Positions 30,201 through 36,525 of a stretch of DNA of 64,000 nt are shown piece by piece. The stretch is taken from NCBI GenBank assembly GCA_013265495.1, contig MU057889.1, forward strand, positions 62,001 through 126,000. The letters are read 5' to 3'. The translations under genes were made by a program, and so were the position numbers. The first letter of the stretch is position 1; each line of letters opens with the position of its first letter. The DNA is from Vicugna vicugna (lineage: Eukaryota). The notes beneath the pieces are model-generated. The model had not been told where the DNA came from. It saw nothing but the letters and a program-made list of their open reading frames with translations, and ran no database searches.

Positions 30201-33200
30201 TTTGTATGTTTGTATCTCTAAACAATATATTTGGTTTTATACATTTTAAACTTCATATAAATAGAACCGTGCTTATATGAATTCTTCTGCAACTTTTTTT
30301 TGCTCTATTATCATTATATTCTAGAAATTCATCCATGTCATTACTTGCAGCTATAAATCATCCATTTCATAACTTATCTATTCTACTGCTGATACATATT
30401 TGGGTTGTTTCCAGTGTTTTGCTGTTATAAGCACCACTGCTGTGAACAGCATATATATATGTAATTTTTTTTAAGTCAGGTGGGTTACTGAGGTGTTTAT
30501 ATATATTTCCTTTATCCTCACAACCCAGGTAGATTCTCTTAATATCCCTATTTTTATAGATGAAGAAAGTGAGGCAGAGGGAGTTAAGCAACGTACCCAA
30601 GGCCAAACACCTACTATGAGGAGGCCTCGATAAAACCTAGGTTCAAATGACTCTAAAGCTCAGGCTCTTAACACTATGCTATATGCCTTTAACACTTAGA
30701 AACATAATCCTTCCTTTCCAGAAGATTTTATGTAGCTTGAAACCTGCACTTAATCAAAATAGGACTTAATTTGAGATAAGTAATGGGAGGAAATGATTAT
30801 AATTCCATCAAGGCTATTACTATTCAAAAAGTAATACACATAGAACAAAAAGGCATCTCCCAGTTTGTGCTCTCATTTCTCAGGATTCATCAACAGACCA
30901 TTCTACAGTTTCTTTTCCCCATACGCCAAATTTTTTCAATATCTAAAATTTTGCTATGCACCTTATGAAACAACTTGTGGAAGGCTAAGTAATGAGAGGA
31001 GGATCTTAAGTAGGTAGGTTAATAAAAAGGCATCTAAAAGATATTAACCAAAACATTAACCTTGGTTATAACAATTGGTGGGTTTCTGGTGATTTTTTAC
31101 TTTCTTCTTTATACTTTTTTTTAAAAATTAATTAATTTATTTATTTTTGTCTTGAGGGGAGGTAATTAGATGTATTTATTCACTTGTTTATTTCAATGGA
31201 GGTACTGGGGATTGAACCCAGAACCTCATGCATGCCAAGCATGCACTCTACCACTGAGCTATGCCCTCCCCCTCTTCTTTATACTTTTGATCGTATTTTA
31301 TGATTATCTTTTATCTTTTATCTTTATAAAGAGGAAAAAAACAGTATTTTTAGTTTGGCAACAAAGTGTTCAGATCCCAGATATTACTAAATATTCACAT
31401 CTCCATTATTATATATGCTGGCTTAATTTATCCCCTTATATGAAGGTCAATTACAGAGCTAGAAATAGGAAGCTGATGAGAACATACCCTGGTACTTGTG
31501 ATGGGGCACAATACTGCCAGAAACACTAAACCTCAGGGTTAGACAAGAAGTTAAAAGTACTTTAGTCCAACCAGCCAAGCAATGTTTAAATCCCCTTTAC
31601 AATATCCCTGTTTGTTAATTAATAATCCAGTGTTTAAGTCTCATGTTATGAACCCACTGCAAAGCAACCTGTTTAGTTTTTGGACAGATCCATTAATGGG
31701 AGTCATCCTTATACTAATCCCAACTGTTTCCGTCAGTTTTCAGCCACACATTGTGAAAACCTGTATTTAACAAATAGTAAGTTTTCCTTAAGTTCCCCAA
31801 TTATTCCTTATTCTAGCCCTTTCATCACTCTGGTCACTCTCCCATAACAGTACTTCAGCAACTACATACATTCTACAGTCCTGTCCCAAACACCCATTAT
31901 TTCTGGTGTGGCCTCACAGAGAAGTGTTGGGTGCTACCTTCCTCATTCTCACCTTAGTACCTTAGCTTTCTTTCTTTCTTTTTAAAGTATAGTCAGCTTA
32001 CAATGTTGCGTCAATTTCTGGTGTACAGCATAATAGTTCAGTCATATATATATACGCACATATATTTGTTTTCATATTCTCTTTCATTATAGGTCACTGC
32101 AAGACATTGAATATAGTTCCCCGTGCTACACAGTATAAACTTGTTGTTTATCTATTTTATATATAGTAGTTCGTATCTGGAAATTTCACGTTAGTTTTCT
32201 AATGACCAGATCACACTGATGACTAATATGAAGCCTCTGTCTTGCAAGTCCTTTCAGACCTGCTCTGCTGCCAAAGACATGCCATTAAACTGTACTTATT
32301 TGGTTAGTTTTTTTAATCCAAATACTGGACTTTACATCTTTCCCCATTGGAAAACAACTTGTTAACTATGACCCACCTCTCTAGTTTGCTAAATTCATTC
32401 ATTCAGTAACATTTTTGAAAGCCTATTTTCCAGGCACTATTCTAATACATTAAACAAAACAAAAATCATTGCGCCTCATGCAGCTGATATTTTATCACCC
32501 TTTTTTTTGATTCTGATTCTATAAGTTAACATTTTCACTATCCATTCCTCTCAGTTTTTATGACATCTATAAAATATAACTAAAGTCCTTGCATCTTTAT
32601 CCAAGTCATAAATTAAAAAGAACAAACAGGACAAGGCTAAGGCCCAGGGTATTCCAATAGAAATGTCCCTTTATTTATTCATTAAAGAGTTGTTTAAGAC
32701 AATTTGTATAGTTGTTCATCCAGTGAGATACCTGTGTACCTAGATCAGATTTCTCTATCACAGCCACAACTATATCATGAAGGACTTGTGAAATATACTG
32801 AGCCTCCCAAATTCCCTAGGCTTTCCCGATCTTCTGTCCTGAAGTTTCAATAATGCAAAAGCCTTGACCCTGCCTTCGTATAGCTGTATTAAAATAATTC
32901 ATGTAGCAGTGACAAAATGCTAAACTTACCCCTTTCATCCAATAGGAGATTTTCTGGCTTAATGTCCCTGTGAGTTATCCCAATACCATGCAGATAAACC
33001 TGTGAGAGAAGCAGAGGACGTATACCAGAATTGGGTAACTTACTTCACTAATATTAATTTTAAGTAAAAGGAAAAGAGACAGCTGTACCTACCACCCCTG
33101 CCATGAGTTGGTGGAAGAACCTCTGAGCATCTTGTTCAGGCATGCCTATGTCTGGCTCTGTAAAAATTAATTATGAAAGTTTACCAGGTAAATATAATCA

Positions 33201-36200
33201 GGCATCAACCACAAAGTCTCCTAATTCTAAAGTTAAACATTTAGCAAAGAGAAATCTTATGCCAACAATTAAAAGGTTCTGCAGTCCACTAATATATATA
33301 GTACTTAAAAACTCACATTTCCTCATCTAAGTGGCAAAAATAAATTAACATCACAGGAAAATCACAGAGAAATAACAAACTATTACCCGAATCAAAAATG
33401 TGAGCCATACCTTGAAAGTCCTTTCTTATTTTATACTAGCCATGATTTACTTGATATCCTTTAAATTCTCCCCTAATTTCTTCTAAATGCTATGCCAATA
33501 TTTTTTCCACTCCTGAAATGTAATTGCCAAAGTGGAAGCCTGGGCAAATCTAAGCTGATTTCACTAAACATTTAACAACAGATTTGAACTTCATATCATT
33601 TCCCACACTACAAAGCCATGAATGCCTGTGAAGTTTCTCCAGGAAATAGCTTTATTAAGGAGGTTTCTTCTGTCAGTTATCTTGCTGTATTTTGACCTCC
33701 CTTGTTAACTTTTAATTTCTTTTACACTCAATTCTCTCCTAATATACATACTAGAGATCCTAATCACCACTTCTTAAACTGTTACTAGCTCTAAATAATA
33801 AATTCAGATCCACAGGAAATATTTTGTTTACTTCTTAGTGCTCTTTAATATTCAGACTTTGAATCTACACAGAACATTTACGTAGCAAACACAGAATTTA
33901 CTTAATAGATATAAAGTAATCCTAGAAAATTCTCAATTATTTCACTTATATAACAATATACTATTATTTTGGATCTGTAAATGTATGCAATGATTTCATG
34001 TGACTAGAACGTCTCCAAAGAAAAAAAATTGCATAGGCCTATGACATATTGCATTTATGATACTTCACCATGAGATCCCAGTTTGATTATCATTCTTAAA
34101 CTCTATAAAGCAGCAATCCTAACCGAAGTCACTTATACAACTTGGGAAAAGTTGCTTTGATGACACCACATATGCTTCGGCATTTACATAAGTTGCAAAA
34201 ACAAGAAAATTTACTCCATTTTCACTACTGCATAAGCAATTCTGAATGGACAGTGAACAAACAGCAGGCCCAAGATTAAAACATAAATTTAAAATAATTA
34301 TTTTAAAGCTTTTCCATACCTATTCTATCAAAAAGTTCTCCCCCACTACAATACTCCAGAAATAGATACTGGATATTGCCTTCTCTCCTGTGACCATAGA
34401 ATTTCACTACATTCTCATGATTTAACATTTTATTGATACAGATCTCTTTCTTAATATTTTCTGGACAGTCTATGGCACGCTTCATGTCCACAATTTTCAC
34501 TGCAACTGCTTCTTCAGTTCTTCTATTCACAGCAAGTTGAACTCTAAAAAGAAAAACAGTAATAATATTCCAGACCCTTGAATTCTATTTCTTTTAAAAC
34601 TTCAAAAAAATTAAATATAACTCATCCAAAACTATTTTACTATCACTTTCTCCACCTGGGAAAAACCATGGCAATGGTTTCTGCGATGTTCTCAACAGAT
34701 ACTACTCCTTTCTGAAATGTGAAGTATGATAGCTAATGCTCCAAAGAAGTCATTATGCTGTACAAGCAAAAGTGATTTAATAAATGCTTGATAAAATAAA
34801 TTTAATGGGGTAATAGCAATACTAGGCCATATCACATATACACATGCTCTATTCATTTGTTTTTCTTCCAGTTGTACTGAGATATAACTGACATAAAGCA
34901 CTGAAATGATTATCATTGTAAGTTCAGTGAATATCCATTATCTCTTATAGATACAAAGTTAAATAGAAGAAAATACATAATTTTCCTTGTGATGAGAACT
35001 CTTTAGTATTTTAACTTTCATATATAACATACAGCAGTGTTAATTATATTTATCATGTTGTACATTACATCCCTAGTACCTTATTTATTTTATAACTGGA
35101 AGTTTGCACCTTTGGCTGCCTTCATTCACTGCCCCTACCCCCACACCCTGCTTCTAGTAACTACAAATCTGATTTCTTTTTCTGTAAGTTCGTTTTTGAA
35201 GTATAATGGACCTACAACACTATGTCAGTTCCTGTAACAACTTAAGATTTGATATTTCTATACATTTCAAAATGATCTGCACGATAAGTCTAGTTAGGTT
35301 ATGTCACCATACAAAGATGTTACATAGTTACTGACTATATTCCCCACGCTGTACATTTCATGCTGGAGACTCATTTATTTTGCAACTGTAAGTCTGTACC
35401 TAGTCATCTCCCTTAAGTATTTCTCTTCTCCCCAAACCATCCTCCCCTCTGGCAACTACCTGTTTGTTCTCTGAATCTGTTTCTCTTTTGTTATGTTTGT
35501 TCATTTGTTTTGTTTTTTAGATTCCACATATTAAGTGAAATCACACTTTGTCTTTGTCTGTCTGACTTATTTCCTTAACGTAATACCCTTTAGGTCTATC
35601 CACGTTGTCCCAAATGGCAAGGTTTCATTCTTGCTCTATTGATTTAATTTTAACATTACCTAATATTTATTAATCCGATACTATATATGTCTATGGCAAC
35701 TGTTCTAAGTACCTACAAGGATATGGAACTATTATTGCAATTTTACAGCTGAGGAAACAGAAGCACACAAGGCCATTAAGAAGCTGGCCTAAGAACACAA
35801 AACAATGACTAGTATGTGGTAGAGTGAGGATTTGAAACCAGGCAGTCTGACTCCGGAGTCTTCATTTGTTCATTTAACCACTTTGCTTAAACCACAGGAA
35901 GGAATAAGTGGGAGAAGAAACTGACTCCCTAAGTCTCTTCCAGCTCTTTAAAAATGTTTTTTAAAAAGGGAGGGGTAAAAATTAATCCTTACAAAAGATT
36001 GTGTTGCTTCACTTCCCCCAAAGTTTTGGATTTCAAATGCAAATATCTGTTTTCTAAGGCGTCACTGTGTTAGAATAAACAACTCCAAAACAACAGACAG
36101 AAAACTAGAGCAACTGTGAAGGCACGGCAAAAGGACTCAAACTCACTCTCCATAGGCACCTTCTCCCAGGGTTTGCACCAAGTCCCAGTCTTCCACAAAG

Positions 36201-36211: not shown

Positions 36212-36525
36212 GATTCCATCAAGTGCCACGGCTGTAAAAGGCAGGAACCCAGAAAAGACGGTGGGTGAGGATAAGCTTCAATCATCTGTAAAGCCACGAG
36301 CCCTGCCTCTTGCTGTGATTCCTCAAGATAAATTACAGCTCCTGGTTTCCCCTTACGCCTCATCCACATTTTATCCAAATCTTTAAACCACAAGCAAGTA
36401 TTCTAAACTCTGGCATTTCGTTGGTAAATCACAATCCCCACTCCTACGCAAACGGAAGGCCGAACCCTCGCCTTCCAGCCAGCAGAGGACAAGTACTAGT
36501 CGCGTTGGGGAGTTGGGGGGGGGGG

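Follow-up and report, generated by a model that had tools for sequence, protein, structure and literature searches.

A described relative of the arrangement analysed here is Chk1-S, an isoform of Chk1 that is said to have been reported by Pabla, Bhatt and Dong in 2012 (PNAS 109:197). Its features are taken second-hand from PMC4175592, PMC7052871 and PMC13589949: exon 3 of CHEK1, which is 224 nt long in human as well (PMC4175592, in excerpt), is skipped, and the resulting protein does not contain the N-terminal ATP-binding part. We take the CHK1-S start to be the MEK codon because the cloning primer begins at that ATG (Table 2 of PMC7052871, in excerpt); an earlier note on this DNA, which gave Chk1-S as an exon-3-skipped isoform starting at an internal MEK, fits this primer at the exon 2/4 joint. 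The second relevant system concerns pairs of closely spaced start codons. In yeast libraries an upstream AUG (uAUG) that is out of frame is less inhibitory the closer it lies to the main AUG, and inhibition is also reduced by a weak uAUG context and by a strong main context; in particular, a uATG with T at -3 ahead of a main ATG with A at -3 was placed at -25, -19, -13 and -7 (Li et al. 2022, Brownian-ratchet scanning; the excerpted parts of PMC9743702).

Chk1 dosage sets the threshold of the replication-stress and G2/M checkpoints, and elements that alter Chk1 translation or the Chk1/Chk1-S ratio are therefore of interest. The CHEK1 gene studied here lies in a 64,000-nt stretch of Vicugna vicugna DNA (the window), and its features are collected in Table 1. 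The full 13-exon model was built against the human protein P0005, which matches the window in tblastn by exon-by-exon HSPs of 85-100% identity; in the spliced model, camelid and human agree at 367 of the 380 residues encoded by exon 4 and the exons after it. The coding exons match collinearly over both the kinase and the C-terminal regulatory parts, as expected of an ortholog, and the neighbourhood is conserved: STT3A-type ORFs lie upstream of CHEK1 at about 57600-43200 on the minus strand and match the STT3A part of a fused pangolin model (P0004). STT3A neighbours CHEK1 in human, too. A retrocopy or an alternative haplotig was rejected, as exon 2 matches itself only, with one match in the 2.03-Gb assembly.

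Table 1. Features of the CHEK1 locus (positions in the window).
Feature	Position	Strand	Remarks
CHEK1 coding region	18121..36211	-	12 coding exons, 476 codons
CHEK1 exon 4	33093..33157	-	65 nt; across the exon 2-4 joint the uATG frame continues as that of Chk1
Premature stop of the main-ATG frame, exon-3-skipped mRNA	33136..33138	-	28 codons
CHEK1 exon 3, skipped in Chk1-S	34320..34543	-	224 nt; 14 GAA and 9 AGAA motifs
TGA stop of the 29-codon uATG ORF, full-length mRNA	34527..34529	-	in exon 3
CHEK1 exon 2	36147..36231	-	85 nt: 20-nt leader and first 65 coding nt
Internal ATG, Chk1-S (MEK) start	36151..36153	-	context cctATGg; 382 codons if exon 3 is skipped, 7 on full-length mRNA
Main CHEK1 start codon	36209..36211	-	context atcATGg; A at -3, G at +4
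uATG	36217..36219	-	context ttgATGg; +1 frame relative to Chk1
TGA stop of exon-1 uORF	36219..36221	-	shares its A with the uATG (UGAUG overlap)
Putative CHEK1 exon 1	37592..37900	-	donor CTG/GTGAGG after 37592; extent at the 5' end assumed
Exon-1 ATG	37660..37662	-	context agtATGa; +2 frame, A at -3; 27-codon uORF; predicted to be present in the mRNA
TAA stop, +1 frame of exon 1	37793..37795	-	no ATG in the +1 frame between this TAA and the uATG

The earlier note had drawn attention to an upstream ATG (uATG) 8 nt ahead of the main ATG of CHEK1, and on re-reading of the window all its statements on the sequence proved correct. The distance, counted from A to A, is 8 nt; the uATG, which has T at -3 and G at +4, is located in exon 2 at a distance of 12 nt from the acceptor, the exon being bordered by an acceptor (...ttttacag ahead of 36231) and a donor (gtgagt after 36147). 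Its frame differs from that of Chk1, and it was rejected as the true Chk1 start. Neither the uATG nor its open frame is a statistical anomaly: the assumed 329-nt leader holds two ATGs, as compared with 3.2 +/- 1.7 in 5000 mononucleotide shuffles, and a 24-codon open frame occurs at leader composition in 27% of shuffles, so that both the ATG count and the openness of the frame are within chance. The spliced model bears out both frame predictions that had been made. On the full-length mRNA the uATG opens a 29-codon ORF that begins in the exon-2 leader, runs out of frame past the main AUG and stops early in exon 3, which is the structure of an upstream overlapping ORF (uoORF). With exon 3 skipped, its ORF comprises 404 codons, continues in the frame of Chk1 and ends at the normal stop (18123-18121).

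Exon-3 skipping restores an open Chk1 frame from two exon-2 AUGs, the one at 36153, which is the MEK start codon of Chk1-S as present in the window, and the one at 36219. The product predicted for the camelid uATG would agree with Chk1-S in the skipping of a 224-nt exon 3, in the frame and in the loss of the N-terminal ATP-binding part. It would differ in being 22 residues longer (404 codons, as compared with 382 for Chk1-S in this gene), and its start, lying ahead of the strong main AUG, which yields a mere 28 codons on the skipped mRNA, would need no leak past that AUG to the MEK start, unlike that of Chk1-S. With the constructs of Li et al. (2022; PMC9743702, in excerpt) the camelid leader shares an out-of-frame uAUG with T at -3, placed a few nucleotides (-7 in their series) before a main AUG with A at -3; those are yeast reporters, whereas the camelid uORF would also provide the start codon for a splice isoform and directly adjoins the stop of a further, putative uORF.

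From the observed sequence, reading frames and gene model, and from comparators that have no Met at this codon (see below), we infer initiation efficiency, splicing and product fate as follows. The uATG is probably a real, near-neutral uAUG of small effect that arose from a G-to-A change in the exon-2 leader. In the 20-nt leader, such a change would have placed an AUG in intermediate-to-weak context 8 nt ahead of the strong main one; most scanning ribosomes would either go by it or be caught at the main AUG close by, and a minority would initiate at it. On full-length mRNA these starts would give a 29-residue out-of-frame peptide ending in exon 3 and a slight loss of Chk1, and mRNA on which the uAUG is used may be exposed to nonsense-mediated decay. 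From any exon-3-skipped mRNA they would give a 404-residue Chk1-S-like protein with 22 extra residues and without the kinase N-lobe. The expected dampening of Chk1 is small, given the T at -3 and a strong AUG that follows within 8 nt, the arrangement with the weakest inhibition in the yeast study (PMC9743702, in excerpt). The uATG would then be another case of upstream start-codon turnover in the CHEK1 leader, to which the ATG in primate exon 1 and one in pangolin, a codon further upstream than the camelid ATG, also point. Several considerations speak against a small effect. With G at +4, initiation can be appreciable; the data on uAUG distance come mainly from yeast; and exon 2 shows no synonymous change in 20 of the 25 comparator proteins, which indicates unusual constraint, so that a change just upstream of it may not be neutral.

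All this presupposes the A at 36219, which is very unlikely to have arisen by an error in assembly or sequencing or to be a rare allele carried by the animal that was sequenced. Doubts could stem from the draft state of the assembly (12,405 contigs, with a run of 605 N located 300 nt upstream) and from the finding having been selected for being unusual; however, the surrounding exon is otherwise identical to that of other mammals, and per-base error rates of assemblies are low. Of 24 sequencing runs surveyed, fourteen DNA runs under four organism labels contain 0.85-0.95 of the sampled words and two RNA runs 0.11 and 0.09; such shares bear neither on this base nor on the splice junctions.

At the codon of the uATG, the 25 comparator proteins that read the +1 frame have Val in 20 cases, Ala in five and Met in none (this set comprises cluster representatives and cluster members; two of 27 proteins without the 7-residue anchor were left out of the count). 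The ten cluster representatives matched by the exon-2 +1-frame peptide have Val (nine) or Ala (one). Judged from these sequences, the uATG looks specific to the camelid lineage, or is at least absent from all comparators. In the human protein model a Val codon stands opposite the camelid ATG, its first base therefore being G, in agreement with the GTG that the earlier note gave for the human -8 position.

The frame itself is, however, already entered elsewhere. In database models, human and at least a dozen other primates reach the same +1 frame from an exon-1 ATG. On the full-length primate mRNA this gives a 117-aa overlapping upstream ORF (P0026 = UniProt E9PRU7) and, if exon 3 is skipped, a 492-aa ORF (P0005 = XP_011540862.1 / UniProt E7EPP6; P0022 = BAG61885.1 / B4DT73, the latter derived from a cDNA record). 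Like the camelid ORFs, they run in the +1 frame through exon 2 with an identical 23-residue Trp/Cys-rich peptide, stop early in exon 3 on full-length mRNA and join the Chk1 frame at exon 4 on skipped mRNA. They differ in where they start, 89 codons further upstream in exon 1, and in having Val or Ala in place of the camelid Met, whereas the camelid exon 1 contains a TAA and no ATG in the +1 frame. A pangolin (Smutsia gigantea, P0004) also has a +1-frame ATG within the exon-2 leader, but one codon further upstream (-11) and followed by Val; this ATG is read from a single residue of one erroneous, fused STT3A-CHEK1 gene model.

With the +1 frame already entered from exon 1 in primates, the camelid uATG represents a new way into an architecture that is already known. 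The possible lineage-specific checkpoint switch put forward from the sequence thus stands as far as its frame arithmetic is concerned, but not as a new kind of switch. In its strong form, it would require that the uATG be used efficiently, both lowering Chk1 synthesis and giving an efficient start to an extended, dominant-inhibitory Chk1-S, so that the camelid checkpoint threshold is reset. We consider this unlikely, even though the frames fit exactly, no AUG of the productive frame precedes the uATG on the skipped mRNA, and the camelid exon 3 retains numerous GAA-type motifs (14 GAA), in which it resembles the Tra2-dependent human exon (PMC4175592, in excerpt). The context of the uATG is weak at -3, with a strong AUG merely 8 nt away, and in human cells the CHK1-S protein is, according to the excerpted parts of the same source, barely detectable even under strong exon-3 skipping. 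Moreover, primates already have an upstream in-frame start, and no functional study of the human 117- or 492-aa ORF products was found in literature searched by four accession numbers. The lack of a camelid gene model starting at the uATG among nine candidates of 78-2000 aa and one of 24-77 aa also argues, weakly, against the switch. Efficient use of the uAUG in camelids would amount to a natural experiment, with a single base altering both Chk1 translation and the Chk1/Chk1-S ratio; what the evidence suggests is a modest variation on an architecture already present in primates.

New in this analysis is a second role of the same nucleotide: the A of the uATG also completes the TGA that ends a putative exon-1 uORF, and, given the predicted exon 1/2 junction, TGA (36221-36219) and ATG (36219-36217) overlap by one base. 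With G at 36219, this uORF is computed to comprise 58 codons on full-length mRNA, crossing the main AUG into exon 3, or 55 codons on skipped mRNA. The junction of the putative exon 1 agrees with the muntjac (P0003) and human (P0005) models. A TATAAA at 37989-37984, upstream of this exon, together with homology to the human exon-1 ORF, suggests that the ATG at 37662 lies within the transcript; the start of the human cDNA-derived ORF is equivalent to about 37849 in the window, and an orthologous transcription start would therefore include 37662.

The effect of truncating this uORF could exceed that of the new AUG. The A would then matter mainly as the third base of the TGA, turning an overlapping, fully inhibitory exon-1 uORF into a short one of 27 codons after which 40S subunits could reinitiate, the main AUG following at 7 nt and the MEK AUG, the more plausible site, at 66 nt. 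Besides the stop itself and the human ORF start, this reading can invoke the purine at -3 of the exon-1 ATG and an artiodactyl-like protein (P0001), the very similar N-terminal peptide of which starts one codon earlier in the frame of the exon-1 uORF. We nevertheless hold it improbable, as its basis is one sequence and one predicted exon, and as a gap of 7 nt between stop and start usually makes reinitiation inefficient in Kozak-type experiments. Human CHEK1 also has alternative start sites with different 5' UTRs, which counts against it, and a uORF is predicted in the long human CHEK1 5' UTR (Table 2 for the latter; PMC3208247, in excerpt).

For mammals in general, the by-products of this analysis appear more useful than the small-effect uAUG itself. 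These are the upstream +1-frame CHEK1 ORFs in databases (117 aa and 492 aa in human) and an exon 2 for which protein comparisons between distant mammals point to an absence of synonymous change. In the set of 25 proteins (primates, muntjac, pangolin and other mammals), 20 share one and the same 23-residue +1-frame peptide, which leaves about 20 degenerate Chk1 codons without synonymous change, while the intron-derived residues adjoining the peptide differ freely. A degenerate pattern for the first Chk1 codons matched 0 stretches in metagenome contigs.

This constancy, set beside the free variation of the neighbouring residues and +1-frame ATGs at three positions (in exon 1 for primates, at -11 for the pangolin and at -8 for the camelid), would also be compatible with selected dual coding, in which mammals keep some +1-frame upstream AUG and exon 2 is constrained in both frames, the +1 product being of importance. 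We give this little credence. Ascertainment is biased, the comparators having been found via the same peptide and being mostly gene models that need a +1-frame ATG; synonymous constraint near start codons or beside alternative exons has other common causes; and the exon-1 part of the extension is near-neutral in pace. Equally doubtful is a more elaborate form, with exon 2 as a conserved dual-coding exon in which +1 AUGs are gained recurrently and the synonymous sites of the first 22 Chk1 codons are held, while the camelid base, as both UGA and AUG, would shift ribosomes among Chk1, a decoy peptide and a long Chk1-S depending on exon-3 splicing. As to the pace of the primate exon-1 extension, human shares 73 of its 88 residues with each of two colobines, as compared with 374 and 376 of 379 in the Chk1 part of the same pairs, which marks the extension as fast-evolving; between human and lemur, 58 of 92 residues are identical.

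A complete CHEK1 gene lies on the minus strand of the window (see Table). The human comparator protein P0005 matches each of its coding exons in turn, with 85-100% identity, and the spliced model derived from these matches contains a Chk1 ORF of 476 codons running from the ATG at 36211 to the stop at 18123-18121. CHEK1 exon 2 is present in a single copy in the assembly. On the same strand, upstream of CHEK1, lie STT3A-type ORFs that match the STT3A part of the pangolin (Smutsia gigantea) model P0004 (1120 aa), a fused STT3A-CHEK1 gene model in which CHEK1 exon 2 is read in the wrong (+1) frame. 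Exon 3 has the same length as its human counterpart, and its 14 GAA and 9 AGAA motifs, densest toward its 5′ end, fit the Tra2-beta binding pattern of human exon 3 (PMC4175592).

Table. CHEK1 features in the window.
Feature	Position	Strand	Details
Putative exon 1 donor	exon 1 end at 37592	-	CTG/GTGAGG; junction agrees with muntjac and human models
N run, CHEK1 intron 1	36526-37130		605 N, some 300 nt 5′ of exon 2
CHEK1 exon 2	36231-36147	-	85 nt; after ...ttttacag, before gtgagt
Upstream ATG (uATG)	36219-36217	-	context ttgATGg
Main ATG	36211-36209	-	context atcATGg
CHEK1 exon 3	34543-34320	-	224 nt
CHEK1 exon 4	33157-33093	-	

The uATG and the main ATG are 8 nt apart and lie in different frames. 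On the full-length mRNA the uATG opens an ORF of 29 codons that stops at 34529 in exon 3; on the skipped mRNA, in which exon 2 is joined to exon 4, the same start gives 404 codons in the Chk1 frame, the internal ATG at 36153 gives 382 and the main ATG just 28. Recomputing the frames on both mRNAs reproduced all the figures of the earlier note for the uATG, the exons and the ORFs. The start of the inhibitory, exon-3-skipped isoform Chk1-S at a MEK codon, as given there, also holds, since the CHK1-S cloning primer (Table 2 of PMC7052871) opens with the ATG that reads M-E-K-P-D. According to PMC4175592, CHK1-S is made from a downstream initiation site on the exon-3-skipped mRNA, and the protein is barely detectable even when splicing is strongly switched. 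Statistically the uATG pattern is not peculiar: the assumed 329-nt leader contains 2 ATGs, compared with 3.2 ± 1.7 in shuffled sequences, and an open frame of 24 codons is found in 27% of the shuffles.

The distribution of the uATG was examined with the +1-frame peptide of exon 2, lengthened upstream into the intron to meet the 40-aa minimum of the protein-collection query. Nine matches among nine candidates were obtained in the search of longer proteins and one among one candidate in that of near-length proteins, and these ten have Val (nine) or Ala (one), never Met, at the uATG codon. Across 25 anchor-bearing proteins, cluster members included (2 of the 27 lacked the anchor motif and were excluded from this count), the residues are Val in 20, Ala in 5 and Met in none, so that the first base of the codon is G everywhere else seen, the named species being chiefly primates together with Muntiacus reevesi and Smutsia gigantea; neither rodents nor carnivores are represented, nor are camels or further camelids. 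A metagenome scan returned no exon 2 of other mammals.

The architecture itself, an upstream entry to the +1 frame and an exon-3-skipped ORF, has precedents. Human P0005 (492 aa; XP_011540862.1, E7EPP6) and the cDNA-derived record P0022 of the same cluster (492 aa; BAG61885.1, B4DT73) start at an exon-1 ATG and then read exon 2 in the same +1 frame as the camelid uATG; as they pass from exon 2 to exon 4, they are exon-3-skipped ORFs. Human P0026 (117 aa; E9PRU7) is their exon-1-started upstream ORF on the full-length mRNA, and it ends at the exon-3 stop also used by the camelid uATG ORF. The length of 492 aa recurs in 12 of the 15 listed cluster members, which come from apes and Old World monkeys. 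The layout is shared by a lemur model and by a further colobine model, and in pangolin P0004 the codon immediately before the camelid uATG position encodes Met. No functional study of the human 117-aa or 492-aa ORFs came up in a literature search on four accession numbers. The camelid region aligned to the human exon-1 ORF has Arg where human has Met, followed in that frame by a TAA at 37795-37793 and by no later exon-1 ATG, which leaves the ATG at -8 as the only entry to the +1 frame. In the exon-1 extension, human shares 73 of 88 residues with each of two colobines, compared with 374/379 and 376/379 in the Chk1 part; 58 of 92 are shared with the lemur and 39% with the window, where the stop is present. 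Judged from these alignments, the primate extension changes fast, a pattern that weighs against selection on extensions of this kind at the protein level.

Both starts have G at +4 and differ at -3, where the uATG has T and the main ATG A; under Kozak's rules the uATG context is intermediate to weak and that of the main ATG strong. In yeast libraries, out-of-frame uAUGs are less inhibitory nearer the main AUG, in weak context and before a strong main AUG, and T(-3) uATGs before an A(-3) main ATG were among those tested, at -25 to -7 (Li et al., 2022; PMC9743702). By analogy from yeast to mammals, the camelid layout would be near the least inhibitory one tested there. The earlier note had proposed a possible lineage-specific checkpoint switch that could dampen Chk1 and give Chk1-S an earlier start; its sequence observation stands, and its interpretation is borne out in part, the idea of a new kind of switch not being supported as stated because primates already enter the same frame from exon 1. 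The favoured reading of the uATG is that of a lineage-specific uAUG, probably of small effect; on the sequence comparisons, it is the camelid's own entry to an upstream ORF in the +1 frame, for which primates use a start in exon 1.

The same base may have a second effect. If exon 1 ends at the putative donor, a 27-codon uORF in the +2 frame begins with ATG 37662 (agtATGa), and its stop TGA (36221-36219, minus strand) shares its last base with the first base of the uATG (UGAUG). With G at 36219 this uORF would stay open for 58 codons, past the main AUG and as far as exon 3. The substitution therefore has the further result of cutting short an overlapping uORF that could be strongly inhibitory. 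The N-terminus of comparator P0001 is a very similar peptide beginning one codon earlier, so the uORF may exist in artiodactyl relatives too. It would be on the mRNA only if the transcript includes 37662, exon 1 being putative; human CHEK1 has alternative transcription starts (PMC3208247). A TATAAA (37984-37989, minus strand) borders, on its 5′ side, the GC-rich stretch in which the putative exon 1 is found. About 20 nt after it is an ATG (37965-37963), apparently in the frame of ATG 37662 and relevant only if transcription begins further upstream.

The 23-residue +1-frame peptide of exon 2 (36148-36216, minus strand) is identical in 20 of 25 comparators (primates, muntjac, pangolin and other mammals), four others having one difference and one having two, and the intron-derived residues directly after it vary freely. 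Each second position of the +1 frame is a third codon position in Chk1, so the first ~22 codons of Chk1 show virtually no synonymous change. This invariance and the dual use of base 36219 merit cheap follow-up in existing mammalian data. Elsewhere in the window, a plus-strand ORF (9042-9602), convergent with the CHEK1 3′ end, contains some 20 inexact pentapeptide repeats (xSGEx/ASGEH/PSGEQ type), which look similar to the repeats of the acrosomal protein ACRV1/SP-10.
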